Sequence record: OP557969.1
Direction: 5' to 3' (one strand)
Origin: Escherichia phage ph0011
DNA: 64,000 nt
The first letter of the stretch is position 1; the number at the start of each line of letters is the position of its first letter. The position numbers and the translations under genes were made by a program. Below, piece by piece: positions 4,723 to 23,857 of the stretch. The notes under the pieces were generated by a model. It saw only the letters and a program-made list of their open reading frames with translations. It was not told the DNA's origin and ran no database searches.

Positions 4723-4992
4723 CCGGCTTATGTAGTAATTATACGCTTTTTCAGTACTGAGTCAATACCTAAAAACAAAATAATTGAAAATAATTTAACG
4801 CGTTTAAACGGCCCGTAAAGCCCTGGAATGATTAGAATGGTGCAAATGTATAGCTTAGGTGTATTAATGCGTTAGAATGCGTCTGAGGCCGTTTTACGGG
4901 GTATAGGGATGATTTAGTGGATTGATTCAGTACTGAATAATAGTACTCCTATATAGAAAGAAAACTATTTTAAAAGTATTTGTAGAAAGTAC

Positions 4993-5051
4993 TTGCACCG
5001 TACTGATAAAAGCGTATAATGTTTTACATCGAGAGCGGGAACACTTCCCGC
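4993..5051 (+). promoter_or_regulatory. early promoter plus 5' leader hairpin cassette
   Basis: AGTACTTGCAC -35, TATAAT -10, GTTTTACAT, then GCGGGAA-cac-TTCCCGC hairpin, then RBS. Confidence 0.6.
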
Positions 5052-5075
5052 TACACATTAAGAGAGATTAAAACG

Positions 5076-5438
5076 ATGGCGACTCAAATCAATAAAATTA
5101 TTGCTAACCTGGTTAACTTCCGTGAAGAGATGAAAGGTCTTCCGGCTGAAACGGTAAAAATTCACATTTCAGCTTATCGGGAACTTATTGCAATGTTACC
5201 GCTTAAGCGTGAACAATACGCCGCTACCGTGATGCTTGATGCGATGATCAATAAGATGATCGCCAGTGATTTAACGATGGTTTATCAGTACATGGGCGAA
5301 AATTTCGCGGTGTCTGGTAAGCCAGTACCAGGGATGGCAACTACTGAGGAATTGCACGGTTTAAATTTAAAACAAGATGCATGGGATAATATGCCTCGTT
5401 TCCTGGTATGGGCTGACAGTGGCAAAATTTACAAATAA
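5076..5438 (+). CDS. hypothetical protein (120 aa)
   Basis: Start at MATQINK after hairpin and RBS AAGAGAG; track N-extension covers promoter. Confidence 0.65.
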   Translation: MATQINKIIANLVNFREEMKGLPAETVKIHISAYRELIAMLPLKREQYAATVMLDAMINKMIASDLTMVYQYMGENFAVSGKPVPGMATTEELHGLNLKQDAWDNMPRFLVWADSGKIYK

Positions 5439-5530
5439 GTTTAATAAAGTACTTGCATACTAAGTTAAAACAAGTATAATACTTTCTATCAGGTGGGGAA
5501 TAGTTCCCCACTATATAAGAGGATTAAAAA

Positions 5531-5770
5531 ATGGCTAAATCAAAAATGTTCTTAGGTCACAAAAACAAAACTCATTGGAATGTAAGCCTTTGGATTAATA
5601 ACGATGAATCATTATACCGGTTGGCCCTGGACTTTATTGCCGCCAATACTAATCGCAATGATGCGGCCCGTCATATGATGTTATTTTTAGAACAGACTGG
5701 ACAAGATAAAACACCGGACGGATTCAAATATAGCACTACTGCGATCCGTGCGGCGATGGTTGGAATGTAA
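5531..5770 (+). CDS. hypothetical protein, paralog of 7569..7808
   Basis: Shared GHKNKTHWNVSLWINN and TPDGFKYSTTAIRAAMVGM; own cassette. Confidence 0.7.
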   Translation: MAKSKMFLGHKNKTHWNVSLWINNDESLYRLALDFIAANTNRNDAARHMMLFLEQTGQDKTPDGFKYSTTAIRAAMVGM

Positions 5771-5860
5771 TAGAATAGAATTTATTTAAAGTACTATCAT
5801 TTTTTGCGATAGTACTTTATAATAGTGTTTTATTCATACACCAACGATAAGGGCAATAGC

Positions 5861-6127
5861 ATGAATATTAAGTATTTTGCGACGCGTGAACAAGCTCGGA
5901 AGGCGGCGAAAGTGGAAGGTGCAACGTTTAAAGATATGGGCATACAATCGGAACGTGGTAAACGTTGGGCCATTGTAAAGCGTAGTACAGCCAGATCATT
6001 ACAGTACTGGTTAGCGGCTTTAAAAAGTCCTGCTAGTGTATCGCGTCGAGTGGTAGAAATAAAGCTCGACCGTAAGGGGAATCGTGTTACCGTGTACCGT
6101 ACTAAAAAGATAGCAGTACTTGAATAA
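5861..6127 (+). CDS. hypothetical protein, paralog of 18547..18942
   Basis: Shared FYATRE..FKDMG..DRKGNRVTVY; start at MNIKY after RBS. Confidence 0.6.
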   Translation: MNIKYFATREQARKAAKVEGATFKDMGIQSERGKRWAIVKRSTARSLQYWLAALKSPASVSRRVVEIKLDRKGNRVTVYRTKKIAVLE

Positions 6128-6130
6128 AAA

Positions 6131-6195
6131 GTACTTGCAAACTATGCTTAAAAGCGTATAATACTTTATATCAGGGCGGGGGAATAGTTCCCGCC
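6131..6195 (+). promoter_or_regulatory. early promoter plus 5' leader hairpin cassette
   Basis: AGTACTTGCAA, TATAAT, GCGGGGGAA-tag-TTCCCGCC hairpin. Confidence 0.6.
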
Positions 6196-6214
6196 TATAA
6201 CCGGGAGTAATAAA

Positions 6215-6445
6215 ATGACTAATATGTATATGACTGAAGTTAAAACCGTAAAAGATACTACCACGAATAAAACTACTTACTTACAGCGGATCTGTGGTGT
6301 CTGGCAACGTATCAGCAAATCAAAGTACTTTAAATTAACATCATATGCCAATCGTTCGGATTCATTCAGTACTGAAATAAAAGGTAATAAAGTACACCAA
6401 TACGGCACTTATTATTATTATAGCCTGGACGCGATTGCAGTATAA
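6215..6445 (+). CDS. hypothetical protein (76 aa)
   Basis: ATG directly after hairpin and AGGAGT RBS. Confidence 0.6.
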   Translation: MTNMYMTEVKTVKDTTTNKTTYLQRICGVWQRISKSKYFKLTSYANRSDSFSTEIKGNKVHQYGTYYYYSLDAIAV

Positions 6446-6730
6446 GTAGTTTACAAATCTTTACAATTGCCGGTATTGACTTAAAATGTCAGTACTGGCA
6501 TAATGTATTCATTGGCAGATAAGCCGTGGCCCATAGGGTGCGGAAGTGTATCTATAGAAAAATTAGTTTAGTACAGTTACAATTGTGCACCCTGTGGGTT
6601 AGCTGTTGTCATGGGGTATATTATGCCAGTACTTGATAATGCTGTCAATACTTTTTTACTATTCAGTACTGAAAACTATTTGATAAAAAGTACTTGCAAA
6701 CTATGTTTAAAGGCGTATAATGTTTTACAT

Positions 6731-6803
6731 CAGGACGGGGAACGAAATAAGTAACTTCCCGTTAAGTAGCCCAGGAGTAAGGCATACGAAAAACTCCCCT
6801 GAT
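6731..6803 (+). other. structured about 75-nt leader element (copy 1), candidate small RNA or regulatory leader
   Basis: Starts at promoter +1 (CAGGACGGGGAACG...ACTCCCCTGAT), followed by a second promoter; near-identical copy at 17354-17424. Confidence 0.45.
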
Positions 6804-6871
6804 AAAATAGTTTGACAATTGTTTTTAAAAGCGTATAATACTTACATCAACTACTGAATGAGGGTTACAAA

Positions 6872-7483
6872 ATGAAAACTATCACTACTACTACTTATGT
6901 TATGGATTTTTCTGAATTGAACGCAGAACAAAAAACGTCAGCTATCGAACTGGTTCGGGAACGTGAAAAAAACTTAAACGACGATTATTTTTCTGAAAGT
7001 GAAATTGAATACTATAAAGAAACAGTACTACCGGAATATGGCATTAATGACGCAGAAATACAATTCAGTGGTTTTTGGTCGCAAGGTGACGGTGCATCAA
7101 TTAGTACTGACCACGTTGACGCAGTGAAGTTTTTACGTAAGGTAAGAGCATTAACTAAGTATCGCTCAATCCGTCACCTGCTGAATGAAGATGATTTGGC
7201 GATGAGTGTAAAGCGTTCTCACTCCCGCTACTCACATGAGAACACTGTAAGCGGGTACATTGAATCGGCTTACACTGATTTAACCGCAAAACAAGAAACG
7301 TTAGTTAATGAGCTTGAGGAACTGCTCACTGATACTATTCGTGAATTGTCACGCAAGTTATACCGTGATTTAGAGAATGCATATGAGGATCAATTCACTA
7401 CTGAAAACATCGTATCACTGATTGAGGGTAACGAATATCAATTCAATGTTATTGATGGCGTAGTAGAATCAATTGCATATTAA
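6872..7483 (+). CDS. hypothetical protein (203 aa)
   Basis: ORF with RBS GAGGG; tandem promoters upstream; no confident family call. Confidence 0.65.
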   Translation: MKTITTTTYVMDFSELNAEQKTSAIELVREREKNLNDDYFSESEIEYYKETVLPEYGINDAEIQFSGFWSQGDGASISTDHVDAVKFLRKVRALTKYRSIRHLLNEDDLAMSVKRSHSRYSHENTVSGYIESAYTDLTAKQETLVNELEELLTDTIRELSRKLYRDLENAYEDQFTTENIVSLIEGNEYQFNVIDGVVESIAY

Positions 7484-7485
7484 AA

Positions 7486-7550
7486 AGTACTTGCAAACTA
7501 AGTTTAAAAGCGTATAATACTTTATATCGAGGCGGGGAATGGTTCCCCGC
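7486..7550 (+). promoter_or_regulatory. early promoter plus 5' leader hairpin cassette
   Basis: AGTACTTGCAA, TATAAT, GCGGGGAA-tgg-TTCCCCGC hairpin. Confidence 0.6.
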
Positions 7551-7568
7551 TCAAACGAGGATTTAAAA

Positions 7569-7808
7569 ATGGCTAGTACTAAAACTTACAACGGTCACAA
7601 AAACAAAACTCATTGGAATGTTTCCTTATGGATTAATAACGGTGAGTCATTGTATCGGCTTGCTCAAAGTTGCATCGCACAATGTAAAACTAAAGATATT
7701 GCGGCCCAATGTATGTACCGCAGATTAAAAGCCAACGGTACTACTACAACGCCGGACGGATTCAAGTATAGCACTACGGCGATCCGTGCTGCAATGGTTG
7801 GAATGTAA
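7569..7808 (+). CDS. hypothetical protein, paralog of 5531..5770
   Basis: Start at MASTKTYNGHKNKTHW after hairpin and RBS. Confidence 0.7.
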   Translation: MASTKTYNGHKNKTHWNVSLWINNGESLYRLAQSCIAQCKTKDIAAQCMYRRLKANGTTTTPDGFKYSTTAIRAAMVGM

Positions 7809-7864
7809 CATTCAGTACTGAATCAATGGCGGGTGTGGTTCCCGCCTTTACTGAGGATTATCTA

Positions 7865-8146
7865 ATGAGTAAAGTAATTAACTATACAGTACTAAGCAAG
7901 TCATTATCTATTAGCCAGTGCACCGATGGTTTTTGGCTGTACGATGAAACGCGTGGTATGAATTTAGCTATGCAGGAGAAAACTCCTGATGCGGCATATC
8001 TTAAAGCACTGGAATACTACCAGAAGCGTTTAACGGAAGTAGAAAACAATTATCAGAATCTCAAAGAGAAAGTAGATAATTTCGTTGGTCAATTCGTTGA
8101 CGATGACGAAGGGCACTACTGCGACCGTTGCGGATCTTACAGTTAA
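7865..8146 (+). CDS. hypothetical protein (93 aa), C-terminal CxxC
   Basis: Start at MSKVINY after GGCGGG..CCCGCC hairpin and RBS GAGGAT. Confidence 0.55.
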   Translation: MSKVINYTVLSKSLSISQCTDGFWLYDETRGMNLAMQEKTPDAAYLKALEYYQKRLTEVENNYQNLKEKVDNFVGQFVDDDEGHYCDRCGSYS

Positions 8147-8163
8147 GTACTAAGGATTATATA

Positions 8164-8367
8164 ATGAGTGATTTAATTGAACGTATCAAAGAGCTTGAAG
8201 AAAAAGAATTACAGCTAATCGGCTTACAGAATAAAATCTATCATGATTTGGGGAGTTTTATCAATGCTTGGGATAGTGGCGATCCTGATGCGTTACCTGC
8301 TAACCGCCAGGCAATGATCAATGATGTGCGTGGTGTCTTTGAGTATGTTTTAAAGCAATTAAATTAA
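8164..8367 (+). CDS. hypothetical protein (67 aa)
   Basis: Start at MSDLIER after RBS TAAGGA. Confidence 0.55.
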   Translation: MSDLIERIKELEEKELQLIGLQNKIYHDLGSFINAWDSGDPDALPANRQAMINDVRGVFEYVLKQLN

Positions 8368-8370
8368 AAA

Positions 8371-8436
8371 AGTACTTGCAATTAGTTTTTAGTACTGTAT
8401 AATGTTTTACATAGAGGGGAGAAAATGGTTCTCCCT
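8371..8436 (+). promoter_or_regulatory. early promoter plus 5' leader hairpin cassette
   Basis: AGTACTTGCAA, AGTACTGTATAAT, GGGGAGAAA-atg-GTTCTCCC hairpin. Confidence 0.6.
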
Positions 8437-8454
8437 AGTAAAGAGGAAAATAAA

Positions 8455-8676
8455 ATGGCTAATATTACTACTCTTTCCCAACTTGAAGCACTGGTTAAAT
8501 CTATGCGGGAACATGCCGACAAAATCGGCGTAAAAGATCCAGCCGTTTGCTTTTGTGACGAATTGAATGATGATACATTGGTAATAGCAGAAGTCCAGGA
8601 CGTTTCTAACTATTCATCGCGTTACACTGGCGGCGTAGCAAATAAAGGTGACTTCTGTTTATACCTTACCAAATAA
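8455..8676 (+). CDS. hypothetical protein (73 aa)
   Basis: Start at MANITTL after hairpin and RBS AAGAGGAAA. Confidence 0.65.
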   Translation: MANITTLSQLEALVKSMREHADKIGVKDPAVCFCDELNDDTLVIAEVQDVSNYSSRYTGGVANKGDFCLYLTK

Positions 8677-8840
8677 CAACGCGGGGAGATAATAACTCCC
8701 CGTTACTTTTTCAGTACTGAATCATTTAATAGACGGATCTATGCACCCGGTGGGTTAGTGACTGTTTCGTCTTGATGTAGTAATTATGCCAGTACTGGAT
8801 GCGGTTGTCAAGAACTATTTTTCAAATACTTTTTACTAAA

Positions 8841-8906
8841 GTACTTGCTAATAGTTTTTAAACGCGTATAATGTTTTACATAGCAAGGGGAAACGGTTTC
8901 CCCTGG
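8841..8906 (+). promoter_or_regulatory. early promoter plus 5' leader hairpin cassette
   Basis: AGTACTTGCTA, TATAAT, GGGGAAAC-g-GTTTCCCC hairpin. Confidence 0.6.
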
Positions 8907-8924
8907 TAACTAAGGAATAAGAAA

Positions 8925-9161
8925 ATGATCGAACAAATCAAATCAACGTCTGCGAATGTAACGGGAACGGTATCACACTTTACTAGTGATGAATCGCGGG
9001 GCGTACCCTATTGTGCTGTACATGTAAACACTGAGGGTAACTACTGGTTTACGGTTTACGGATCATATTCATTTGGACGGCCAGGGCATCAAAAAATTCT
9101 GGATAAAGTACAGCCAACGGGTAAAAATATCACTGCTGAAATGTTTTATAAAAAATCATAA
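8925..9161 (+). CDS. hypothetical protein (78 aa)
   Basis: ATG after hairpin and RBS TAAGGA. Confidence 0.65.
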   Translation: MIEQIKSTSANVTGTVSHFTSDESRGVPYCAVHVNTEGNYWFTVYGSYSFGRPGHQKILDKVQPTGKNITAEMFYKKS

Positions 9162-9162
9162 A

Positions 9163-9228
9163 GTACTTGATAATAGTTTTTAGTATTGTATAATATTTTA
9201 CATCGCAAGGGGGAGCGGTTCCCCCTGG
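9163..9228 (+). promoter_or_regulatory. early promoter plus 5' leader hairpin cassette
   Basis: AGTACTTGATA, TGTATAAT, GGGGGAGC-GGTTCCCCC hairpin. Confidence 0.55.
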
Positions 9229-9245
9229 TAACTAAGGATAATAAA

Positions 9246-9545
9246 ATGAAAATTGCAATCATCGCCCTGGCTTTATCTGTTTCCTCTTTCGCTGTTAATG
9301 CGTCATTAGATGTAAGTAGTGAAAAATTCATTCAGTGCACTGTTGCAATGACCGATGAAAGAACTGGCGAGATTGTATTAAAGGATTTAGAGATCCAGCC
9401 GGAAGCATTTAAAAACGGCCCGTTCCATGAAGAAGACGAAAACGGTAGTACAACAATTTATTATGATGCTAGTACTAAACGCGGTTCGGTCACGGTTATG
9501 GATACTGAGAAAGTAACTCATACAGGCGTTATTAATTGCCGTTGA
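9246..9545 (+). CDS. small secreted or periplasmic protein (99 aa) with Sec-type signal peptide
   Basis: N-terminus MKIAIIALALSVSSFAVNA with AxA-like cleavage site; two Cys in mature part. Confidence 0.6.
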   Translation: MKIAIIALALSVSSFAVNASLDVSSEKFIQCTVAMTDERTGEIVLKDLEIQPEAFKNGPFHEEDENGSTTIYYDASTKRGSVTVMDTEKVTHTGVINCR

Positions 9546-9566
9546 TTGATACTACGGGGTAACATC

Positions 9567-9797
9567 ATGACTAAGCGAATAGTTTTACTTAACGCTGGAA
9601 GTACTACACAACTCCTTAACGCCGTGCATTATGATATTGAAACGAGCGTCAATCTTATCAGTACTGTAGTATTGTTGGACACTGGAAAGGTCGCAAATGA
9701 TAAAGCGATTGCAGGTATACTAACGGATCTTAAACCAGGTTGCAGTACTCCAATAACTTTAAATGATAAAGTGTTTAATATTTTACTAACTGATTAA
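9567..9797 (+). CDS. hypothetical protein (76 aa)
   Basis: ATG 22 nt after upstream stop; weak RBS; intrinsic terminator follows. Confidence 0.45.
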   Translation: MTKRIVLLNAGSTTQLLNAVHYDIETSVNLISTVVLLDTGKVANDKAIAGILTDLKPGCSTPITLNDKVFNILLTD

Positions 9798-9803
9798 GTA
9801 CAT

Positions 9804-9830
9804 AGCCCACCAGGTGGGCTTTTTTGTTTT
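9804..9830 (+). terminator. rho-independent terminator
   Basis: AGCCCACC/GGTGGGCT stem then TTTTTTGTTTTT. Confidence 0.75.
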
Positions 9831-9872
9831 TGTAGTATTGTAGTACTGAGATACTTTGAAAATAGTTTTAAA

Positions 9873-9915
9873 AAAGTAGTTGACATTACCGCAAAAAGGC
9901 GTAGAATGTATTACA
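9873..9915 (+). promoter_or_regulatory. sigma70-type promoter followed by long structured leader
   Basis: TTGACA, 17-bp spacer, TAGAAT; about 100-nt leader related to the 6731 element. Confidence 0.5.
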
Positions 9916-10030
9916 TCAAGACGGGGAGCACTAAGTAGACCGCCAGTAAGTCGAACGAAAAACTGGACACGTCGAGAAAACTTTGATACACTAATAAACG
10001 TAAACTAAACTTTAATTGAGGATTTATAAA

Positions 10031-10513
10031 ATGGCGAATGTAAAATCATTTCTGAAAGCACTGATTTCCAACGATACTGCTATTGCGGCTGAACTGCTGG
10101 CGGATCTGGATAACGATACCATGAAAGCAGTACGCAACAATTTTAACATTGCGTACAGTGAAGCTAAAGAACTGCAAGCCAAAAAGGTAGCAGAACTGGA
10201 AGAACAGAAAAAAGCCCGTGAAGAAGAACTACAAGCAACGATTGAAAGTATTCAGGCGGCAGTTGCTGGGTTGGATCTGGATGTAGTTGTAGAAATGGCA
10301 CATAAAGCCCTGGCAGTTAAGTACGGGGAAGATAAGCCAGTAGCTAAACCTAAAAAATGGATTCAGGAACGCGTAACGGTTGTTCTTGATAATGGCGAAG
10401 AACATTTAATTCCCGTGCGTGGTAACTGCATTGCGGTAGTTCTGGATGCTATCAAAGAAAGCGGATTGACTCGCGAGGAATGGATCGAAGCTCACCGCAA
10501 AATTGAAGCATAA
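10031..10513 (+). CDS. hypothetical protein (160 aa), coiled-coil-rich N-terminal half
   Basis: Start at MANVKSF after RBS GAGGAT; charged heptad-like segment EEQKKAREEELQ. Confidence 0.65.
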   Translation: MANVKSFLKALISNDTAIAAELLADLDNDTMKAVRNNFNIAYSEAKELQAKKVAELEEQKKAREEELQATIESIQAAVAGLDLDVVVEMAHKALAVKYGEDKPVAKPKKWIQERVTVVLDNGEEHLIPVRGNCIAVVLDAIKESGLTREEWIEAHRKIEA

Positions 10514-18104: not shown

Positions 18105-18127
18105 CTAACAAAGAGAGAGAAATAAAA

Positions 18128-18546: not shown

Positions 18547-18942
18547 ATGATTACTAAATTCTACGCTACCCGTGAAGCTGCCCGTATTGTTGCACGCGAG
18601 GAAGGAGCAGCATTTAAAGACATGGGCAAAGATGCACCGAAAGGTCAACGCTGGGCCGTACAGTTCAAAGAAATCTCTGATATTGTGAATTCACCTGAGC
18701 CAGTACTGACAGCAGCAGAACTAAAACGAGCGGATATGCTGGCGGCAATACTTGACGCACAAGATGAGTTTATCGCTGATTCTGATATCAAAGTACAGGT
18801 AAACCACACCGCATGGACTCACGCGGATCACCTGGCAAACCTTAAGCGTCCAAGTGAACTGATTCGCAACCAGAAAGAGATCCGACATGATCGTAAGGGT
18901 AATCGTGTAACAGTATACAGTAAACGCCGCCAGGTTATCTAA
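18547..18942 (+). CDS. hypothetical protein, paralog of 5861..6127
   Basis: Start at MITKFYATRE (RBS AGGA 8 nt upstream). Confidence 0.6.
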   Translation: MITKFYATREAARIVAREEGAAFKDMGKDAPKGQRWAVQFKEISDIVNSPEPVLTAAELKRADMLAAILDAQDEFIADSDIKVQVNHTAWTHADHLANLKRPSELIRNQKEIRHDRKGNRVTVYSKRRQVI

Positions 18943-18964
18943 TAACTTGCAGTACTAACAACAC

Positions 18965-18990
18965 GGCGGGATCAGTTCCCGCCTTTTTTA
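18965..18990 (+). terminator. rho-independent terminator
   Basis: GGCGGGA/TCCCGCC stem then TTTTTTA; same stem type as leader hairpins but with a U-run. Confidence 0.7.
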
Positions 18991-19003
18991 TAGGACAAAC
19001 AAA

Positions 19004-19258
19004 ATGATTAAGGTTCAACTATATAAAGATAACATCTTACGGGTACACTATAAAGCACCGAAGAGAATCATCACAAAGGCCGTACAGCTTGCTAATGAGT
19101 TTATTAATGGTAACCTATTACCGAGGAAGTTAAGCAACGGGAAACTGCGTGTAATCGATGTGGACACTAACAACAGGATAGTAATCGAGAACACAGGAAA
19201 GATAAACCTTTATGAGCATCAACAATACAATAAGAAAATAAAACTAATATCACGTTGA
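19004..19258 (+). CDS. hypothetical basic protein (84 aa)
   Basis: RBS AGGACAAACAAA. Confidence 0.55.
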   Translation: MIKVQLYKDNILRVHYKAPKRIITKAVQLANEFINGNLLPRKLSNGKLRVIDVDTNNRIVIENTGKINLYEHQQYNKKIKLISR

Positions 19259-19311
19259 CAGTACTCAATTGTTTTAGTATTATGTACACATACCAACACG
19301 GGAGAAACAAA

Positions 19312-19530
19312 ATGAAATTATCTAAAATCGAAAAGAAAACTATTGATGAAGCAGTTAAGCACGGTTATACCTTTCGTAATGATTCACATTTTACCAATTT
19401 TCAACAAGGGTATCGTACTATTAAAAAACTAATTGACAAAGGTTTATTAGTTGAAGTCAATAACGGTAACGGTATCGAGTATCAACCAACACAGGACGCA
19501 TTTTATTTTAAGAAATATAATATTATCTAA
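19312..19530 (+). CDS. hypothetical protein (72 aa)
   Basis: Start at MKLSKIEKK after RBS GGGAGAAACAAA. Confidence 0.55.
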   Translation: MKLSKIEKKTIDEAVKHGYTFRNDSHFTNFQQGYRTIKKLIDKGLLVEVNNGNGIEYQPTQDAFYFKKYNII

Positions 19531-19588
19531 TTGACAGTACTCAAATGTTTTAGTACTATATGTACATACCAACACGGGGGGAAACAAA

Positions 19589-19831
19589 ATGATTACTTTA
19601 GAAAAACGTATCAAAGAAACTACATCGCTGGTGGAACTGTTAACAGTACTCAAATGTAAAACAACACCATTCAGCACGCCGGACTTTATTAATATGGTTG
19701 ATGTTAATGGTCGCTATCGTATCACGGTCGAACAAGGAGCGGCGAAAGTATTCAGTACTAAAAACACGAAGGAAGTGATCCACGCCGTTAATGTTAAAAA
19801 AGTAGTTGCCATTGATAGTAAAGTACTGTAA
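19589..19831 (+). CDS. hypothetical protein (80 aa)
   Basis: RBS GGGGGGAAACAAA; upstream module repeats that of 19312. Confidence 0.55.
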   Translation: MITLEKRIKETTSLVELLTVLKCKTTPFSTPDFINMVDVNGRYRITVEQGAAKVFSTKNTKEVIHAVNVKKVVAIDSKVL

Positions 19832-19862
19832 TATAGTTTCATTAACTCAAGGAGAACATGCA

Positions 19863-20447
19863 ATGCGTAATTATACTAAATTCATCCGTACACTGTCAGA
19901 AATGGAAACCAACAAAGAGATCCTTTCAGCTTGTCGGTTAGCTGGCCTGGAGATCATCGGTGCTGGTTCTTCCCGTATAGTTTTCGCTTTAAATGATCGG
20001 TTAGTGATTAAGGTCGCGAATTGTGATGCGGGTGTAGAACAAAATGAAACTGAATGTAAGGTATGGAATTTTTTAGACTATGACCGCCCTCAATTGAAAC
20101 AGTACTTTGCAAAGGTGCATATGCATTTATGCGATCCTGATAATATGTTTATCGTTATGGATCGGTTGAGTACTGCAAGCAAAGGCAGTGTGAAGCACGT
20201 AAACGCGTGCAATGAATTAAAGTACAATATTAAACGTAATGCAATCGAACGCCAGCACCGCTTTGCTGATGCACTACAACACGTTGATGATACATTATCA
20301 ACACTAACGATAAGAGATATCAGAAAACAGAATATCGGCCAGGATCGTAATGGACTTATTAAAGTACTTGATTACGGTTTAACCAGCAATATCTGGAATC
20401 AGTACTATAAAAAGCGTGATGTGGCAGCAAGTAAGGTAACACGATAA
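19863..20447 (+). CDS. minimal protein-kinase-like protein (about 195 aa)
   Basis: Gly-rich loop IIGAGSSRIVF, Lys motif LVIKVA, catalytic-loop-like IRDIRKQN, DFG-like LDYG in canonical order and spacing; RBS AAGGAG. Confidence 0.6.
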   Translation: MRNYTKFIRTLSEMETNKEILSACRLAGLEIIGAGSSRIVFALNDRLVIKVANCDAGVEQNETECKVWNFLDYDRPQLKQYFAKVHMHLCDPDNMFIVMDRLSTASKGSVKHVNACNELKYNIKRNAIERQHRFADALQHVDDTLSTLTIRDIRKQNIGQDRNGLIKVLDYGLTSNIWNQYYKKRDVAASKVTR

Positions 20448-20459
20448 AAAAGATTAAAA

Positions 20460-20560
20460 AAGGGATTGACTCCGGTCAGTCCCTTTGCTATTATATATCC
20501 ATTGAGAGATAACTCACTGACCCATAGGGTGCGGAAGTGTATCTATTATATAAGTATTCA
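20460..20560 (+). repeat. GGGTGCG-core intergenic element with own promoter
   Basis: GGGATTGACTCCGGTCAGTCCCTTTGCTATTATATA ... CCCATAGGGTGCGGAAGTGTATCTAT. Confidence 0.5.
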
Positions 20561-20667
20561 GTACTGAAAACTATTTTTAAAAAAGTACTTGCATTGTACT
20601 TAGAATCAAGTATAATGTTTTATATCGAGAGGGGGAATGGTTCTCCCTGGCAATAAGGAATAAAATC

Positions 20668-20889
20668 ATGACTACAATGACTTGCATTTACGCTTCTAAT
20701 CTTCTGAATGATGCGGCCTTTAATGTTGATTCAGAATATCAATGTTATCGGGATGAAAATAAAAAAGTTTTTGTAGTTGATAATAATGGTTTCCATATTG
20801 AATTACAATCCGGCTTCACTGGTGTTGATGGTAAATCAGTATGGGGCGTACAGGATGATAAAGGCACATATCATTTTAAACGTAATTAA
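20668..20889 (+). CDS. hypothetical protein (73 aa)
   Basis: Promoter, GGGGGAATGGTTCTCCC hairpin, RBS TAAGGA. Confidence 0.65.
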   Translation: MTTMTCIYASNLLNDAAFNVDSEYQCYRDENKKVFVVDNNGFHIELQSGFTGVDGKSVWGVQDDKGTYHFKRN

Positions 20890-20892
20890 GTA

Positions 20893-20951
20893 TTGACAAA
20901 GTATATCAGTACTGTATAATAGTTTACATCAAGGGGAGAATAGTTCTCCCC
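20893..20951 (+). promoter_or_regulatory. early promoter plus 5' leader hairpin cassette (duplicate C)
   Basis: TTGACA, AGTACTGTATAAT, GGGGAGAA-tag-TTCTCCCC; near-identical copy at 21385-21442. Confidence 0.65.
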
Positions 20952-20972
20952 GATACTAAAAGGAATAAAATC

Positions 20973-21377
20973 ATGACTACTACTAATCAAGCTCGGTCCA
21001 TCGCCAACGATAAAAATCATGCTGCAATGGTCGCTGGTTACATTGAAGCTATGCAATTCAGTACTGTACACAATGAGAACGGCGATTACCTGGAAGATTA
21101 TGAATTATCAGAGCAAGCCCATCAAGCGGCGGTGATTGCATGTTCTCGCTTCATTGAGAAACACGGTAATGATCTGGAAGTAGTTCGCGGTATGTTTATT
21201 GATTACGGTTATGAGCAAGCTGGTCATGATCTCTTTCTTACTCGCGAAGGTCACGGCACTGGTTTTTGGGATCGTGGTTTAGGTCACTATGGCGATGTAT
21301 TCACGAAGTACTGCGAAGAAATCAACGTTTGCGATCCCTATGTAGGCGATGATAATCTAATCTATATGGGCGAATAA
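20973..21377 (+). CDS. hypothetical protein (134 aa)
   Basis: RBS AAAGGA after hairpin. Confidence 0.65.
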   Translation: MTTTNQARSIANDKNHAAMVAGYIEAMQFSTVHNENGDYLEDYELSEQAHQAAVIACSRFIEKHGNDLEVVRGMFIDYGYEQAGHDLFLTREGHGTGFWDRGLGHYGDVFTKYCEEINVCDPYVGDDNLIYMGE

Positions 21378-21384
21378 AAGTATT

Positions 21385-21442
21385 TGACAAAGTATATCAG
21401 TACTGTATAATAGTTTACATCAAGGGGAGAATAGTTCTCCCC
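21385..21442 (+). promoter_or_regulatory. early promoter plus 5' leader hairpin cassette (duplicate D)
   Basis: Near-identical to 20893-20951. Confidence 0.65.
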
Positions 21443-21461
21443 ACTAAAAGGAAACAAAATT

Positions 21462-21734
21462 ATGTCTAGCTACTCCGCAACTATGATCATCAAAGATATG
21501 AATAACAATCCTACCGCCGCTGGTGGATCGTTCGGTAACATTAACCTAGATGGTCGGTTATCCATGCAATCAGCCATCGATGCAGCGAAAGAAGTTTTTA
21601 AGAATGAATGTACTGTTAGTAAGCTGGATTATATGGGTTTCGCTATCGAGAAAACTACTCGTTTTGTGAACTACAAAAATCCACTGATGATTGATACTAA
21701 CCTGAAAGCTAACGAAGTGGGGTACTTATTATGA
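21462..21734 (+). CDS. hypothetical protein (90 aa)
   Basis: RBS AAAGGAAAC after hairpin. Confidence 0.65.
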   Translation: MSSYSATMIIKDMNNNPTAAGGSFGNINLDGRLSMQSAIDAAKEVFKNECTVSKLDYMGFAIEKTTRFVNYKNPLMIDTNLKANEVGYLL

Positions 21735-21922
21735 CAGTAGAAGAAGTTAAAAAAGTACTGGCAGTACTACGATATCATAATCATTGCAAGGTGAAGAATG
21801 ATCCTGATTATCTTGATTCATCCCTGGAGGAAGACACCTTGAACGCTATAAGCCATATGCAGACATTAGCAAAGCGTATGACTGAAAAGAATATGCCGGA
21901 CTATATCGGAAATAAAATTTAA
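21731..21922 (+). CDS. hypothetical protein (63 aa)
   Basis: ATGA overlap with upstream gene. Confidence 0.5.
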   Translation: MTVEEVKKVLAVLRYHNHCKVKNDPDYLDSSLEEDTLNAISHMQTLAKRMTEKNMPDYIGNKI

Positions 21923-22009
21923 AAAGTACTTGCATTGTAGTTAGATTAACGTATAATGTTTTATATCGAGAGGGGGAAATGGTTTCCCCTCAAGTCCAGG
22001 AGATACACC

Positions 22010-22273
22010 ATGAACACTATCGAAATCACTATCAATGCACACGTATACGACAACGTAGTACTGCAAACTACTATGACCGCCAATGATACCAGTACTTTGC
22101 GGAATACTGTTATTAGTGCCGTATGTGCCGCTATCGGTGATGTCGCCCTGGAAAATGCAAAACACGTAAACGATGGTTTCACTATGTGCAAACGTGATAA
22201 CGCAAAACATATCATCGTGGAAGGTTACGGCGGTGTAGAATTTAATGTTTATATGAAAAAAGTACTTGCATAA
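22010..22273 (+). CDS. hypothetical protein (87 aa)
   Basis: Start at MNTIEIT after GGGGGAAA..TTTCCCC hairpin and RBS CAGGAG. Confidence 0.6.
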   Translation: MNTIEITINAHVYDNVVLQTTMTANDTSTLRNTVISAVCAAIGDVALENAKHVNDGFTMCKRDNAKHIIVEGYGGVEFNVYMKKVLA

Positions 22274-22340
22274 TAACTAAAACAAAGTATAATGTTTTGC
22301 ATAGGGGGAGATATCCTCCCCCACTAAAAGGAGTAATAAA

Positions 22341-22565
22341 ATGGCTAACTTTGATGAACTGATGCGGGAAGTAGCTAACCTGGCAGAAGAGAAGAAATCA
22401 TTCGATTCTATCTATAACACCGCTCACCGTGATTCAGTACTGGCATGTAACCAGGATCAAAAAGATGAACTAATCGCCACCTATCATGAAGCATGGAAGT
22501 ACTACCGACAATGGGAGAAAGAAGAAAGTGAGTCTACCATTGACGGCCTCAATAATCTAATCTAA
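22341..22565 (+). CDS. hypothetical acidic protein (74 aa)
   Basis: Promoter, GGGGGAG..CTCCCCC hairpin, RBS AAAGGAG. Confidence 0.65.
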   Translation: MANFDELMREVANLAEEKKSFDSIYNTAHRDSVLACNQDQKDELIATYHEAWKYYRQWEKEESESTIDGLNNLI

Positions 22566-22581
22566 AAGTTTTATTTCAGTA

Positions 22582-22615
22582 CTATTGACATAGCTTGATA
22601 GTACTGATGTAATAA
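22582..22615 (+). promoter_or_regulatory. class-2 early promoter
   Basis: AGTACTATTGACA ... AGTACTGATGTAAT. Confidence 0.5.
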
Positions 22616-22641
22616 CTTTACTAACTACAAGGGGAAACATA

Positions 22642-22899
22642 ATGGATCAGTTCACACAATATCGGGTAAATCCACAAGCTATGGCCTACGTAGAAGACCA
22701 TAAAACGTTACCAGTACTGCAACCAGTTAAAGGCCATATCTATCGTGCAATGTCGTGGTGTACGGCCCAGGATGGCTATAAAACCGTAGCCGTGGGTATG
22801 TATTGCGGTGATGGTGAATGGTTTGATCCAAATAATCCGGTAGCCATTGACAGTACTGAAAAAATGAAATGGGCCGACTACATCGAAGATATTTCATAA
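22642..22899 (+). CDS. hypothetical protein (85 aa)
   Basis: RBS AAGGGGAAA. Confidence 0.6.
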   Translation: MDQFTQYRVNPQAMAYVEDHKTLPVLQPVKGHIYRAMSWCTAQDGYKTVAVGMYCGDGEWFDPNNPVAIDSTEKMKWADYIEDIS

Positions 22900-22989
22900 A
22901 AACTATTTGACAGTACTAACCAGTAATGTATAATGTTTTACATAGAGCGGGGGAATAGTTCTCCCGCCAATAGTTTGGAGTAAAACATT

Positions 22990-23190
22990 ATGTCTATCGC
23001 TATCGCCATGGTTGAAGTACTGAAAGAAGCTAAAGCCAACCAGATCGACGTAAAGATCCAGGAACTACAAAACGGCTTAATCGGCTGTACTTGTACCGCT
23101 GGTGGAGCGGCAGACTATCGAGAACACGAATCACTCGAATCACTGGTTCGGTATCTTACCATGATCGTTGATGATTGGAGAATCATCTAA
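22990..23190 (+). CDS. hypothetical protein (66 aa)
   Basis: Promoter, GCGGGGGAA..TTCTCCCGC hairpin, RBS GGAG. Confidence 0.6.
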   Translation: MSIAIAMVEVLKEAKANQIDVKIQELQNGLIGCTCTAGGAADYREHESLESLVRYLTMIVDDWRII

Positions 23191-23199
23191 CAAAAAAGA

Positions 23200-23330
23200 A
23201 TAAAAAAAGGGATTGACTCCGGTCAGTCCCTTTGCTATTATATACGCATAGACAAAAACTAGCCCACAGGGTGCATAGGTGTATCCAAAATATATAGTTA
23301 ATAACGGTGAGTAACTATCTGCTGGTGGAA
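23200..23330 (+). repeat. GGGTGCG-core intergenic element with own promoter (longest copy)
   Basis: Same 5' part as 17190 copy with an insertion in the central region. Confidence 0.5.
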
Positions 23331-23435
23331 CTAAAACTATTAATAAAAAAGTATTGACAAAGTATATCAGTACTGCAATAATGTATCTCATAGGGCGGCA
23401 ATGGTGCGACGGCCCACAAAGTTAGGAGATTCAAA

Positions 23436-23768
23436 ATGACTACTTCAATCGCTATCGTTAAAGCTTTCATCCGTACTAATGTTTCCTCTGTATTCATCGA
23501 CGGCCTCGACCGTAACGTAGAATACTCAATCATTATCGCACAAACGGCAAACGGTTCTCGGTACATCCTGAATGATAGTGAAGCAAATCACTACTACTTC
23601 ACTAAAGCCACTGGCTTTAAACGCATCGATGCTGATGTAGTATACGCTAAGATGAATAAGCTGGTAGATAAGATTAACGCTAAAGGTACTATAGATTTAC
23701 AGTACTGGACCGAAACCGATCCAGAATATGGATCTCACCGCTACCTGAATCCAGGTATTAAAATGTAA
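23436..23768 (+). CDS. hypothetical protein (110 aa)
   Basis: Promoter, GGGCGG..CGGCCC hairpin, RBS TAGGAG. Confidence 0.65.
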   Translation: MTTSIAIVKAFIRTNVSSVFIDGLDRNVEYSIIIAQTANGSRYILNDSEANHYYFTKATGFKRIDADVVYAKMNKLVDKINAKGTIDLQYWTETDPEYGSHRYLNPGIKM

Positions 23769-23832
23769 AAAGTACTTGCATAGTACTTAGATTCATGTAT
23801 AATGTTTTACATAGAGAGGGGGAAATGGTTCT
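23766..23832 (+). promoter_or_regulatory. early promoter plus 5' leader hairpin cassette
   Basis: AGTACTTGCAT, TATAAT, GAGGGGGAAA-tgg-TTCTCCCTC hairpin. Confidence 0.6.
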
Positions 23833-23857
23833 CCCTCCTAAATTAAGGAGTTTTATC

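Follow-up and report, generated by a model that had tools for sequence, protein, structure and literature searches.

The question raised by this locus is why a long row of small phage genes should share one module of promoter and hairpin, and what the hairpin does there. The window, that is, the whole 64,000-nt stretch analysed, shows 88-98% identity to Asteriusvirus genomes in megablast comparisons. Judged by these alignments the phage is an Asteriusvirus (121Q/PBECO4-like) jumbo coliphage, and not one of the T4-type phages to whose cassettes the initial annotation had likened it.

Promoters and cassettes in the terminal repeat

vB_Ec-M-J has an annotated direct terminal repeat (DTR) of 21,525 bp, whose first base aligns to window position 3358, and in JP4 window 24689 runs straight on into window 3358. 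For the genus Asteriusvirus, long terminal repeats of this kind, about 21 kb in length, are on record (PMC13070987). The cassette array had been placed at 4985-23835; it is found there, but it continues to 23857, where the last cassette ends, and the repeat that encloses it is longer:

3358..24689, no strand: DTR with the whole cassette array inside (vB_Ec-M-J alignment and JP4 junction)

Scanning the + strand of the DTR revealed 45 near-consensus sigma-70-like promoters, densely spaced and in one direction, compared with 2.5 +/- 1.4 in dinucleotide shuffles of the same strand (n=200). A second, independent scan found 11 perfect (12/12) TTGACA-N16/17-TATAAT sites. The reading of TGTATAAT as an extended -10 was not borne out, in that the canonical form is TGnTATAAT and the scan gave no TG before the second hexamer for all of them; true TGn is present in the weaker CATAAT, GATAAT and TATTAT subclasses.

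A G/C-clamped hairpin of 7-9 bp with a loop of 3-5 nt follows 23 of the 45 promoters. In 22 cassettes the -10 box is followed by the hairpin after 10-14 nt, and in 22 the hairpin ends 17-23 nt upstream of the ATG. The combination of promoter and hairpin was absent from the shuffles, from the - strand of the DTR and from the other 42.7 kb of the window. The module is thus real, but the earlier count of about 35 was too high:

4993..5075, +: canonical cassette; hairpin 5034-5052, AGCGGGAA-cac-TTCCCGCT; ATG 5076
5453..5530, +: canonical; hairpin 5492-5512; ATG 5531
6135..6214, +: canonical; hairpin 6174-6196, three G·U pairs; ATG 6215
7491..7568, +: canonical; hairpin 7531-7551; ATG 7569; left breakpoint of a three-gene replacement
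8376..8454, +: canonical; hairpin 8416-8436; ATG 8455; right breakpoint of the same replacement
8845..8924, +: canonical; hairpin 8886-8904; ATG 8925
9167..9245, +: canonical; hairpin 9208-9226; ATG 9246
11249..11326, +: canonical; hairpin 11289-11309; ATG 11327
13004..13081, +: canonical; hairpin 13044-13063; ATG 13082
13601..13678, +: canonical; hairpin 13641-13659; ATG 13679
14035..14143, +: two hairpins, 14082-14102 and the ribosome-site-proximal 14107-14123, 20 nt from ATG 14144
15861..15936, +: canonical, -10 TATAGT; hairpin 15900-15918; ATG 15937
16483..16559, +: canonical; hairpin 16523-16542; ATG 16560
16780..16858, +: canonical; hairpin 16821-16837; ATG 16859
17773..17857, +: canonical; hairpin 17815-17834; ATG 17858; recombines with 18044
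18044..18127, +: canonical; hairpin 18086-18104; ATG 18128
20589..20667, +: canonical; hairpin 20630-20648; ATG 20668
20893..20972, +: canonical; hairpin 20933-20951; ATG 20973; recombines with 21384
21384..21461, +: canonical; hairpin 21424-21442; ATG 21462
21930..22009, +: canonical; hairpin 21970-21991; ATG 22010
22266..22340, +: canonical; hairpin 22304-22322; ATG 22341
22907..22989, +: canonical; hairpin 22947-22967; ATG 22990
23776..23857, +: canonical; hairpin 23816-23837; ATG 23858; extends beyond the end first given for the array

The remaining promoters are about 15 without a hairpin, two with a long-loop hairpin, one with a decayed stem and five in a module without an ORF, separate from the gene cassettes. 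About ten genes have no promoter of their own. Since the following hairpin-less promoters are presumably active, the hairpin is presumably dispensable for expression:

5786..5860, +: degenerate, poor -35, TATAAT 5809-5814 (direct reading of the sequence)
6812..6871, +: consensus, ATG 6872 (scan)
9880..10030, +: long leader, without canonical hairpin (scan)
10716..10788, +: left breakpoint of the 10758-10998 indel (scan and relatives)
10950..11012, +: TGn extended -10; right breakpoint of the same indel (scan and relatives)
11490..11551, +: TGGCATAAT class (scan)
14376..14438, +: TGGCATAAT class (scan)
14646..14731, +: TGGCATAAT class (scan)
15444..15500, +: consensus, before a GNAT acetyltransferase gene named from relatives (scan)
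17433..17493, +: consensus; lone cassette flanking an extra gene in JP4 and 121Q (scan and relatives)
18474..18546, +: consensus (scan)
19255..19311, +: -10 TATTAT (scan)
19531..19588, +: -10 TACTAT (scan)
22585..22641, +: degenerate, TTGACAtag...gtactg class (direct reading of the sequence)
23354..23435, +: TGn promoter without canonical hairpin; lone cassette flanking an extra gene in 121Q (scan and relatives)

The variant cassettes and ORF-less modules are as follows:

12776..12853, +: cassette with decayed hairpin, GGGAG-aaatagta-CTCCC; flanks the indel gene 12854-13000
6694..6811, +: promoter and long-loop hairpin, ORF-less leader of about 85 nt, then a second promoter
17317..17432, +: second copy of the long-loop leader module
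13461..13560, +: composite without ORF: 12-bp hairpin over the -35 box, TGn promoter, conserved CCCAYNGGGTGC motif
17190..17290, +: composite hairpin-over--35 module
20459..20560, +: composite hairpin-over--35 module
23206..23300, +: composite hairpin-over--35 module
6476..6575, +: promoter for the conserved CCCAYNGGGTGC-module motif, convergent with the - strand copy at 6648
6540..6648, -: promoter and conserved CCCAYNGGGTGC-module motif
8700..8811, -: promoter and conserved CCCAYNGGGTGC-module motif
4655..4765, -: promoter and conserved CCCAYNGGGTGC-module motif

Recombination between cassettes

Comparison with five relatives gave about 17 distinct indel or replacement events, at least 11 of which have both ends within cassettes. 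Eight events left a single hybrid cassette, which can be aligned with each of the two flanking cassettes along 45-108 bp, and one crossover was located to the base, in the 20893/21384 cassettes. These two are near-identical neighbours, as are 12776/13004 and 17773/18044. The aligned genomes show homologous recombination at the repeated units, which provide 45-110 bp of homology and by which whole modules of unit and gene are deleted, inserted and replaced.

Judging from shared units, exchange is also found between unrelated phage families (Asteriusvirus and Justusliebigvirus). Justusliebigvirus muut has 91.4% identity over 514 bp to window 17338-17846 and 86% to the long-loop module at 6694..6811, and four gene units are common to it and the window in a different order. 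The repeated units are crossover points at which small early genes are gained, lost and swapped among phages.

The same modular shuffling was described for the promoter-early stem-loops (PeSLs) of T4-type phages by Arbiol et al. 2010 (PMC2839356), whom the initial annotation had cited correctly. It is the behaviour that defines PeSLs in evolutionary terms, and the comparison of close relatives shows it here, with indels and replacements ending within cassettes. PeSLs and the cassettes also have in common an AT-rich upstream region, a sigma-70 promoter and a G-run/C-run stem-loop, followed by the Shine-Dalgarno sequence and ATG of small unknown genes. The match holds for make-up and shuffling but not for the phage or for the place of the hairpin. 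In the described PeSLs the stem-loop is a terminator inside or upstream of the promoter (read as sitting in the -35/-10 spacer in RB49, directly upstream of the promoter in PST and nt-1), whereas here it is transcribed from the cassette's own promoter and the T-run is absent.

Position and structure of the hairpin

In the T7 record, promoter A1 is annotated at the A of ATCGAGAGGG, 8 nt past the -10 box. Several cassettes have these ten bases (A1 +1 to +10) at the same distance from the -10 box, and an A occupies the corresponding position in 73 of 75 distinct cassettes. By analogy, the predicted +1 is the A in CAT, at a distance of 8 nt from the -10 box. In the cassettes with ATCGAGAGGG it would lie four to seven nt before the stem. 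With this +1 the unpaired leader would be 1-6 nt (mode 5). None of the 23 canonical hairpins has a T-run, and the terminator scan called none of them. That the hairpin sits in the 5' end of the transcript without being a terminator, as had been claimed, is supported at the sequence level.

The distance to the ATG is also kept where there is no promoter. Four such genes have a G/C hairpin ending 18, 18, 20 and 24 nt before the ATG:

7828..7846, +: G/C hairpin without promoter, ending 18 nt before ATG 7865
12260..12279, +: G/C hairpin without promoter, ending 18 nt before ATG 12298
18965..18983, +: hairpin with T-run (terminator-like), ending 20 nt before ATG 19004
24284..24303, +: G/C hairpin without promoter, ending 24 nt before ATG 24328

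Because of this shared distance, the hairpin is coupled to the ribosome site. The proximal hairpin of the 14035 cassette is likewise 20 nt from the ATG though about 38 nt into the predicted transcript. That the distance is kept without a promoter had been missed in the initial annotation. The proposed resemblance of the G-rich arm to a Shine-Dalgarno sequence applies to the GGGGAGAA subset and not to the remaining hairpins.

Among the internal pairs of 46 distinct hairpins there are 18 G·U and no A·C (binomial p = 8e-6), and orthologous hairpins that differ in sequence average -11.5 kcal/mol compared with -8.2 after an equal number of random changes (Wilcoxon p = 2e-10), with the reservation that these p-values overstate independence since distinct hairpins are related by descent. 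Changes on both sides occur at six of eight stem pairs and the observed covariation was reached by none of 500 shuffles, while the 'percent paired' in this analysis is partly circular because the stems were picked with a hairpin finder. The G·U excess, covariation and ortholog stability point to selection on the + sense RNA. The stem top GGGRAA...UUYCCC, with the purine arm always 5', is conserved beyond the need of stability alone, which may reflect shared cassette descent or a sequence-specific partner.

Possible roles of the hairpin

Our preferred reading, held as a whole with moderate confidence, is that the array consists of early genes read by host RNA polymerase within the DTR of about 21.3 kb, carried in portable units that recombine and that can have a hairpin at the 5' edge of the cistron. 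Each unit of about 80 bp would serve one small gene. In it, a near-consensus sigma-70 promoter would follow an upstream element rich in A and T, the transcript would start with purine-rich sequence and optionally form a G/C hairpin of 7-9 bp, and a linker rich in A would lead to a strong Shine-Dalgarno sequence and the ATG. The hairpin folds in the + sense RNA, roughly between +5 and +27 of the predicted transcript, and is not a terminator; its position is set by the ribosome-binding site, with its end 17-24 nt before the ATG. It might mark and insulate the 5' edge of each cistron, so that neither the G-rich transcript start nor RNA read through from upstream could pair with the ribosome site, and the structured 5' end might slow 5'-end-dependent decay (RppH, RNase E). 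The effect would be the same for mRNA from the unit's own promoter and for mRNA cut from a read-through transcript, the cut being placed in AU-rich promoter RNA just upstream of the hairpin.

A role as 5' stabiliser is plausible, although the geometry is borderline with the predicted +1. Work by Emory, Bouvet and Belasco in 1992 reportedly puts a leader of 1-6 nt at the limit of what still lets a 5'-terminal stem-loop protect the mRNA, or past it. Protection by the hairpin merely as an obstacle is unlikely because simple orthogonal stem-loops are readily bypassed by RNase E scanning RNA (PMC9943677).

It is possible, though we doubt it, that the hairpin is instead a recognition element by which a sequence-specific RNA-binding protein of phage or host controls the early mRNAs jointly, for example by translation shut-off or targeted decay at the early-to-middle switch. 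RegA and RegB act in this way on T4 early mRNAs. The five loop-proximal pairs are near-invariant (GGGRAA/UUYCCC), the purine arm is 5' in every hairpin and, in the cassette hairpins compared, loops favour UAG, UGG, CGG and AUGG. The fixed distance to the Shine-Dalgarno sequence would allow a bound protein to block the 30S subunit, and a hairpin at only about half of the promoters is expected of a regulated subset. However, common descent and gene conversion can explain the conservation, as neighbouring cassettes are near-identical, and promoter-less hairpins at equal ATG distance have unrelated stems such as AGGCCGCT/AGCGGCCT. In RaK2, of another genus, the promoter-then-hairpin layout is alike but the inner stems are quite different (GGGGATACA-tag-TGTATCCCT and GGGAATGAA-tta-TTCATTCCC), which fits only a co-evolving partner. 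No candidate protein for the hairpin was identified.

Transcription attenuation, proposed for the T4-type PeSLs, is improbable here. Stem-loops of this kind would damp read-through and pile-up of RNA polymerase downstream, a real problem with about 45 co-directional promoters, and the RB49 PeSL stem-loop and the rrnB T1 terminator lowered lacZ expression to a similar extent (PMC2839356). A similar stem with a T-run, GGCGGGATCAGTTCCCGCC TTTTTT at 18965-18983, scored terminator-like in the scan, as had been anticipated. Against this, no T-run follows any of the 23 hairpins; they lie downstream of their own predicted start and as terminators would stop their own transcripts too; and spacing is conserved with respect to the ATG, not the stop codon upstream. 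Conventional terminators are already present at 18965 and at three further sites, besides the four terminator-like hairpins over a -35 box (scan):

8681..8703, +: terminator-like hairpin with T-run (terminator scan)
9804..9820, +: terminator-like hairpin with T-run (terminator scan)
10535..10556, +: terminator-like hairpin with T-run (terminator scan)

The near-identical neighbours, the hairpin-less promoters in the same array and the decayed hairpin at 12776 would suit a functionless passenger, persisting because the recombination-spread cassettes are young copies. We consider this very unlikely, since stem changes are compensatory or wobble-only, orthologs are significantly more stable than expected from random mutation and the layout is kept across genera despite different stems.

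Promoters of the N4 virion polymerase have three-nt loops on short G/C stems, and the hairpins here recall them. Least credible of all is a palindrome working as DNA. It could be the operator of a dimeric repressor just past +1, as lac O1 and other operators occupy the same place (+5 to +27); the PeSL authors speculated on a DNA-binding protein (PMC2839356). It could also be an extruded hairpin read by a recombinase or, as at N4 early promoters, by a phage polymerase. Against both, the 18:0 excess of G·T over A·C depends on the strand, has no meaning in double-stranded DNA and would make a template-strand hairpin less stable, half-site spacing varies with loops of 3, 4, 5 and 8 nt, stems covary instead of staying conserved, and promoter-less copies keep the spacing to the ATG.

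Promoters in the direct terminal repeat

When window 4985-23835 was used as a megablast query, 208 phage records were matched. The best matches are the Asteriusvirus (Caudoviricetes) jumbo coliphages CRJP21, vB_Ec-M-J, JP4, fEgEco12, 121Q and PBECO4, with 88-98% identity in many pieces, and none of the 208 records spans 80% of the query at one locus. The initial annotation had likened the region to cassettes of T4-type phages, but by these matches the phage is an Asteriusvirus and not T4-type. Base 1 of the 'Direct Terminal Repeats' feature (21,525 bp) annotated in vB_Ec-M-J aligns to window 3358, and in the JP4 record window 3358 follows directly after window 24689. The direct terminal repeat (DTR) therefore extends from window 3358 to 24689. 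For Asteriusvirus, experiments have confirmed terminal repeats some 21 kb long (PMC13070987).

The region 4985-23835 is essentially the gene-bearing part of the DTR. In annotated relatives the intergenic spacers are about 80-90 bp within the repeat, while the genes just outside it are tightly packed or overlapping, and a scan of the window found no promoter-hairpin units past 24.7 kb. The genes that follow the cassettes encode 47-134 amino acids and are nearly all annotated as 'hypothetical protein' in five relatives. The only names in the annotation of relatives that hint at action on the host are a DksA-like zinc finger, a GNAT acetyltransferase and a Ser/Thr kinase. The left 1.6 kb of the DTR (window 3358-4985) is gene-free, with a consensus promoter at 3753 that has no ORF behind it and an iteron-like tandem array at 4186-4267 (unit CTAGATGGCTAAACGG, period 8/16/24). 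These features may be replication or packaging signals.

Promoters were scanned for as TTGACA or TTGCAA and TATAAT, each with at most one mismatch, separated by 16-18 bp. The plus strand of the DTR has 45 such sites compared with 2.5 +/- 1.4 in 200 dinucleotide-preserving shuffles of the DTR, so the array of near-consensus promoters described in the initial annotation is real by this measure. Nine sites were found on the minus strand of the DTR and 33 in the remaining 42.7 kb of the window, both strands pooled. An independent scan tool reports 11 perfect 12/12 consensus promoters, every one on the plus strand. The cluster of small genes with strong predicted host-type promoters, about 45 in number and each ahead of one or two genes, coincides with the long terminal repeat 3358-24689. 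The -10 boxes had also been described as extended, but with TG at -15/-14, one base 5' of the hexamer, as the definition, this applies to a subset of them. TGTATAAT has its TG directly against the hexamer and so one base off, and the scan tool reports no TG. A true TGn is present only in the subclasses TGGCATAAT, TGCGATAAT and TGCTATTAT, which have the weaker hexamers CATAAT, GATAAT and TATTAT.

The start of transcription was predicted by analogy with T7. The A1 promoter is annotated in the T7 record at 498, the A of ...GATACTTACAGCC-A-TCGAGAGGGACACGG, 8 nt past the -10 box. Cassettes 4993, 20589 and 21930 (named by start coordinate) read TATAATGTTTTA(C/T)-A-TCGAGAG(C/G)GGG with the same spacing, and in two of the three the first ten predicted transcribed bases, AUCGAGAGGG, are identical to those of A1. 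Among 75 distinct cassettes from six phages, 73 have an A at this position. We infer that this A is +1, and the stem would then begin at about +4 to +8. Folding with RNAfold from that start leaves 1-6 nt unpaired at the 5' end (mode 5). T7 has three such promoters before one long operon whose transcript is then cut by RNase III, whereas the window has about 45 with one or two genes each.

Some 15 promoters have no hairpin at all, and their leaders are about 20 nt shorter, as if the hairpin were a discrete and optional insertion located after ACAUCAA and before the ribosome site. Hairpin-less promoters at 9880, 10716 and 11490, and at 8811 on the minus strand, read CATCAAGACaa or CATCAAGACGAaa, and these resemble the early transcript start CATAATacaccCATCAAGACGAg of phage RB49 (L008 14000-33000). 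BLAST gives no overall nucleotide similarity between RB49 and the window. The likeness could be convergence on a good start region for E. coli RNA polymerase, or a distant common origin.

The palindrome AGTACT occurs 248 times in the window compared with about 21 expected from base composition. Its density is highest in the DTR, with 134 copies compared with 6.9; CAGTACTG occurs 60 times. AGTACT is found in coding DNA and in both promoter flanks (AAAGTACTTGCA, CAGTACTGTATAAT), and also in the promoters of the Klebsiella phage RaK2. No explanation for the excess was found in the literature searched.

Hairpin cassettes and selection on the hairpin RNA

A hairpin was counted when the stem had at least 6 bp with at least four G-C pairs and started 8-22 nt past the -10 box. 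Such a hairpin follows 23 of the 45 plus-strand promoter sites in the DTR, and the combination was found neither in the shuffles nor in the rest of the window. The kind of module described in the initial annotation is therefore accurate and far beyond chance, but the canonical cassettes, with promoter, G/C hairpin, ribosome site and ATG, number 23 and not about 35. Their stems have 7-9 bp, their loops 3-5 nt and their free energies lie between -10 and -16 kcal/mol. The distance from the -10 box to the stem is 10-14 nt (mode 12) and that from the stem end to the ATG 17-23 nt, each in 22 of the 23 cassettes. Beyond the canonical set there are two long-loop variants (6694, 17317) and one decayed stem (12776). 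A different module that lacks an ORF accounts for five plus-strand promoters (6476, 13468, 17197, 20466 and 23213) and three on the minus strand.

Modules other than the canonical cassettes
6476-6575, plus strand, ORF-less module
13461-13560, plus strand, ORF-less module
17190-17290, plus strand, ORF-less module
20459-20560, plus strand, ORF-less module
23206-23300, plus strand, ORF-less module
4655-4765, minus strand, ORF-less module
6540-6648, minus strand, ORF-less module
8700-8811, minus strand, ORF-less module
L007:19225, 4623 and 3793, copies of the ORF-less module
6694-6811, long-loop leader module (promoter, ORF-less leader of about 85 nt, then a second promoter)
17317-17432, long-loop leader module of the same composition

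The promoter of the ORF-less modules is of the TGn type, its -35 box overlapped by a 12-bp terminator-like hairpin (AAAGGGATTGACTCCGGTCAGTCCCTTTGCTATTAT), and an invariant CCCAYNGGGTGC motif, conserved in RaK2, follows about 30 nt further 3'. The copies at 6476 (plus) and 6648 (minus) are convergent. A consensus fold of eight plus two CCCAYNGGGTGC modules gave no covariation, and the modules have no Rfam match. These modules are possibly small RNAs; the related phage PA5oct has two highly expressed non-coding RNAs in its DTR. The two hairpins of the long-loop leader are GACGGGGA...TTCCCGTT and CCAGGAG...CTCCCCTG, and besides the two copies in the window one is found in the unrelated phage Justusliebigvirus muut (L006:11555-11670).

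Selection on the hairpin is apparent when 138 promoter-hairpin cassettes with 47 distinct hairpins are compared in the window and five relatives. Internal non-Watson-Crick pairs, with both transition mismatches allowed, are 18 G·T and 0 A·C (binomial p = 8e-6, a value that is overstated because the copies are related). This asymmetry would be meaningless for a double-stranded operator and would weaken a hairpin in the complementary strand, and thus fits selection on the plus-sense RNA. On this asymmetry and the variable loop length, a double-stranded DNA operator and a template-strand DNA hairpin were rejected.

An alignment of whole cassettes with MAFFT was out of structural register, and an alignment of the arms only, anchored on the loop, was used instead. 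Changes on both sides occur at six of the eight stem pairs, for example at pair 4 (G-C/A-U, with G·U intermediates), pair 6 (G-C/C-G) and pair 7 (G-C/A-U/U-A/C-G). The observed covariation was matched by none of 500 shuffles and collapses when the partner is slid 1-3 columns. The 96.5% of positions that are paired is a partly circular figure in that the stems were picked by a hairpin finder, but the changes on both sides are not. The comparison of cassettes proposed in the initial annotation also brought out an invariant stem top and biased loops.

Orthologous cassettes that differ from the window have a mean folding energy of -11.5 kcal/mol compared with -12.6 for the window copies and -8.2 after an equal number of random substitutions (Wilcoxon p = 2e-10 for orthologs against random substitutions). 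This test of stability against simulated mutations replaced a position-by-position comparison of ortholog stems in BLAST alignments, in which 41 'breaks' and 31 'keeps' were unreliable because indels in the G-runs shift the register. Ortholog identity is 90.6% in the 5' arm, 89.8% at third codon positions and 95.8% in the 3' arm. A fast 5' arm and a conserved 3' arm fit the neutrality, in RNA, of A/G changes that face a U. The cassette layout is kept in RaK2 (Alcyoneusvirus) with different stems: GGGGATACA-tag-TGTATCCCT, GGGAATGAA-tta-TTCATTCCC, GGGGCAA-acaac-TTGCCCC and AGGAGGT-aataac-ACCTCCT. We conclude that the predicted hairpin structure is under selection, and in the transcript. An Rfam scan and a tRNA scan of the whole window gave no matches.

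None of the 23 canonical hairpins is followed by a T-run or passes a terminator scan, and at the sequence level the earlier claim that they are not terminators is upheld. The same scan detects conventional terminators at 8681, 9804, 10535 and 18965 and four of the 12-bp hairpins overlapping a -35 box. A terminator placed 3' of the start site would cut off the transcript of its own unit as well, which counts against such a role. Stems of 7-9 bp are too short for RNase III.

In the cassettes the distances from the stem to the promoter and to the ATG are both fixed and cannot be separated. However, four genes without a promoter (ATG at 7865, 12298, 19004 and 24328) have a G/C hairpin ending 18, 18, 20 and 24 nt upstream, with stems unrelated to those of the cassettes. 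Cassette 14035 has an extra hairpin, so that the canonical one lies about 38 nt into the predicted transcript, yet 20 nt still separate its end from the ATG. These five cases separate the promoter from the ATG, and what is constant is therefore the position just 5' of the ribosome-binding site and not the 5' end as such. The hairpin, about 6-10 nt upstream of the Shine-Dalgarno sequence, is thus a selected RNA element coupled to the ribosome site, which can be tested directly.

Recombination and exchange of cassettes

The DTR is mosaic between relatives. Junctions listed from chained BLAST alignments between the window and the five relatives give about 17 distinct indel or replacement events in the DTR, at least 11 of which have both ends inside cassettes, when cassettes are taken as 116-bp intervals (about 23% of the DTR). 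In eight events the arrangement cassette-gene-cassette of one genome is matched in another by a lone cassette, which can be aligned to either of the two, the alignments overlapping by 45-108 bp. Some enrichment of cassettes among the junctions would be expected simply because viable breakpoints in intergenic DNA are selected, but the overlapping alignments are specific to recombination within a repeat, and the eight events bear the mark of homologous recombination between two cassettes.

Genes present in the window but missing elsewhere through such hybrid cassettes are 8925-9161, 12854-13000, 17858-18040, 20973-21377 and 22010-22273, while extra genes in the relatives are located at window cassettes 5453, 17433 and 23354. 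The crossover at gene 20973-21377 could be resolved by a four-way alignment. In CRJP21 the single cassette joins an upstream flank and GATACT linker like those of cassette 20893 to a ribosome site, AAACAAAATTATG, and a gene that are those of cassette 21384, and the crossover is therefore between the hairpin and the Shine-Dalgarno sequence. Other events are a replacement of three genes, delimited by cassettes 7491 and 8376, and a deletion that runs from one hairpin-less promoter (10716) to another (10950). Cassettes are not involved in, for example, the events at 15168-15180, 9538|9814 and 16125|16475. The recombinational modularity of the cassettes is demonstrated by these genome comparisons.

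Some upstream genes finish inside the following cassette (22244-22273, 12770-12785 and 15855-15866); ...ATGAAAAAAGTACTTGCATAA, for instance, codes for the last residues of gene 22010-22273. Recombination between cassettes would therefore also exchange the C-terminal residues of the upstream protein.

A 106-bp cassette used as query matches 10-23 places per Asteriusvirus record among the matches listed that cover most of the query. Matches of 75-81% were found in RaK2-like Klebsiella phages, one of them within a predicted terminal repeat, and matches of 78-85% in coliphages of 142-152 kb including Justusliebigvirus (Stephanstirmvirinae), an unrelated lineage. Phage muut has four promoter-hairpin units in a row. 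Window 17338-17846, with a leader, promoter, gene and the next cassette, is 91.4% identical over 514 bp to muut L006:11576-12085. One muut block of four genes (L006:11183-12702) matches four window genes that are scattered in the DTR in a different order, including those at 5531, 11013 and 11552. Such shared units of gene plus cassette indicate exchange between unrelated coliphage families. When IMG/VR was scanned with exact patterns, arrays were found only in the 121Q contig and the other matches were isolated singles; the GGGGARAA/TTYTCCCC family is therefore narrow.

Relation to known systems and possible role

The initial annotation had compared the units to promoter-early stem-loop (PeSL) cassettes, which have been described in RB49/phi1, PST/T4 and nt-1/KVP40 (Arbiol et al. 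2010, PMC2839356; Comeau et al. 2014, PMC4122927). A PeSL has a strong sigma-70-like promoter, an AT-rich upstream region and a GGGG...CCCC stem-loop, and is found in hyperplastic regions upstream of orphan genes (PMC2839356). Its stem-loop has terminator activity, and when PeSLs recombine with one another genes are shuffled and mini-circles arise (PMC2839356). The comparison holds for composition, location and shuffling. Both kinds of unit are about 80-100 bp long with an AT-rich segment, an early promoter (in the window a predicted near-consensus sigma-70 promoter), a stem-loop of a G-run and a C-run, a Shine-Dalgarno sequence and an ATG. Both precede small genes without assigned function in the most variable part of the genome, and in both the endpoints of indels and replacements between close relatives fall in the units.

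The comparison fails for the position of the stem and for the phage lineage. PeSL phages are Straboviridae with PeSLs in scattered hyperplastic regions, while the units of this Asteriusvirus are packed into the terminal repeat. In RB49 the stems form five classes of position, the most 5' lying ahead of the -35 box and the most 3' immediately before +1 (PMC2839356), and in the RB49 sequence inspected, TTGACA-GGGGATCnnnGATCCCC-TATAAT, the stem is in the -35/-10 spacer. PST and nt-1 have it directly 5' of the promoter. The stem-loops of RB49, PST and nt-1, upstream of or within the promoter, are described as terminators, whereas those in the window are in the 5' UTR after the predicted start, 17-23 nt from the ATG and without a U-run. 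A terminator role for the stem-loops of the cassettes is thus doubtful on their sequence. Only the five modules with a hairpin over the -35 box have the stem in a PeSL position, and they are closer to the PeSL layout. The cassettes work like PeSLs as recombination modules, yet are outside PeSL in the strict sense.

In the literature searched, PeSL as a phage term is confined to the two papers on T4-like phages and passing mentions. Jumbo phages of the RaK2/121Q group have hundreds of genes without known function and an early programme that is essentially unstudied; the literature searched on the group at most predicts RpoD-like promoters and does not mention hairpins. No description of these hairpins was found in the literature on CBB, fEgEco12, RaK2, PA5oct and rV5, and for CBB only 18 RpoD-like promoters with UP-like elements are reported. 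The analysis provides a concrete map of the putative early array, with the terminal repeat being the array, and extends the idea of mobile regulatory cassettes past T4-like phages, including exchange between unrelated phage families.

Gene clusters with a similar arrangement are known from other phages. The first-step-transfer (pre-early) region of T5 is an early gene cluster in a terminal repeat, parallel to the arrangement in the window. We know of no regular hairpin close to the ribosome site described for this region or for the host-takeover module of SPO1. The latter has many small early genes, strong host-type promoters and a long terminal repeat like the window (PMC6873191, PMC10531801). 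Neither module has homology to the window array. Morons and integron gene cassettes are similar in that a gene moves singly, together with the signals for its expression, and is placed between genes already there. In contrast, mobility in the window appears to rest on homologous recombination of repeated promoter units, and no recombinase site is evident. The units are predicted to be compact, strong and apparently context-independent expression cassettes, of interest for phage engineering and synthetic biology.

With moderate confidence we suggest that the hairpin serves to seal each cistron at its 5' edge. It would sequester the start of the transcript, which is rich in purines and resembles a Shine-Dalgarno sequence, as the start of T7 A1 does too, and it would keep the ribosome site from pairing with read-through RNA that comes from upstream. 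It would also leave a structured 5' end, whether that end is the start from the cassette's own promoter or a cut in the AU-rich promoter RNA of a read-through transcript.

The stem-loops in the 5' UTRs of ompA and papA are reportedly stabilisers of E. coli mRNA (Emory 1992; Bouvet and Belasco 1992). As in the cassettes, a stable hairpin is near the 5' end of the mRNA and upstream of the ribosome site. On the A1 analogy, however, the unpaired leader in the cassettes is predicted to be 1-6 nt (mode 5), which would be borderline for a 5'-terminal stabiliser, and the hairpin here stays at its distance from the ATG also where it is not at the 5' terminus. For ompA and papA it is established, as far as the references listed in PMC3997798 indicate, that a near-terminal stem-loop protects against decay that depends on the 5' end.

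The main rival to a role at the cistron edge is that a specific RNA-binding regulator reads the hairpin, and the invariant stem top, the loop bias and the fixed purine-first orientation speak for it. A wider form of this reading is improbable in our judgement: that hairpin and ribosome site would be a post-transcriptional control element of a regulon of about 25 early genes, conserved in layout among Asteriusvirus, phi92-like coliphages and RaK2-like Klebsiella phages and exchanged between them along with the genes, and that a dedicated RNA-binding factor, from the phage or the host, would recognise it and so time or protect early expression. If true, it would be a new control system for early mRNA in jumbo phages and not a relocated PeSL terminator. 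The hairpin as a block to scanning by RNase E was dropped because the enzyme readily bypasses simple orthogonal stem-loops while scanning (PMC9943677).

Another short motif, CGTTAGAAYGC, has three exact copies on the plus strand at window 4870, 10660 and 14953, the last two directly 3' of terminator-like hairpins. A fourth match, with one mismatch, is at 55910 on the minus strand. The count is marginally above chance, with four matches reached by 3 of 100 shuffles.
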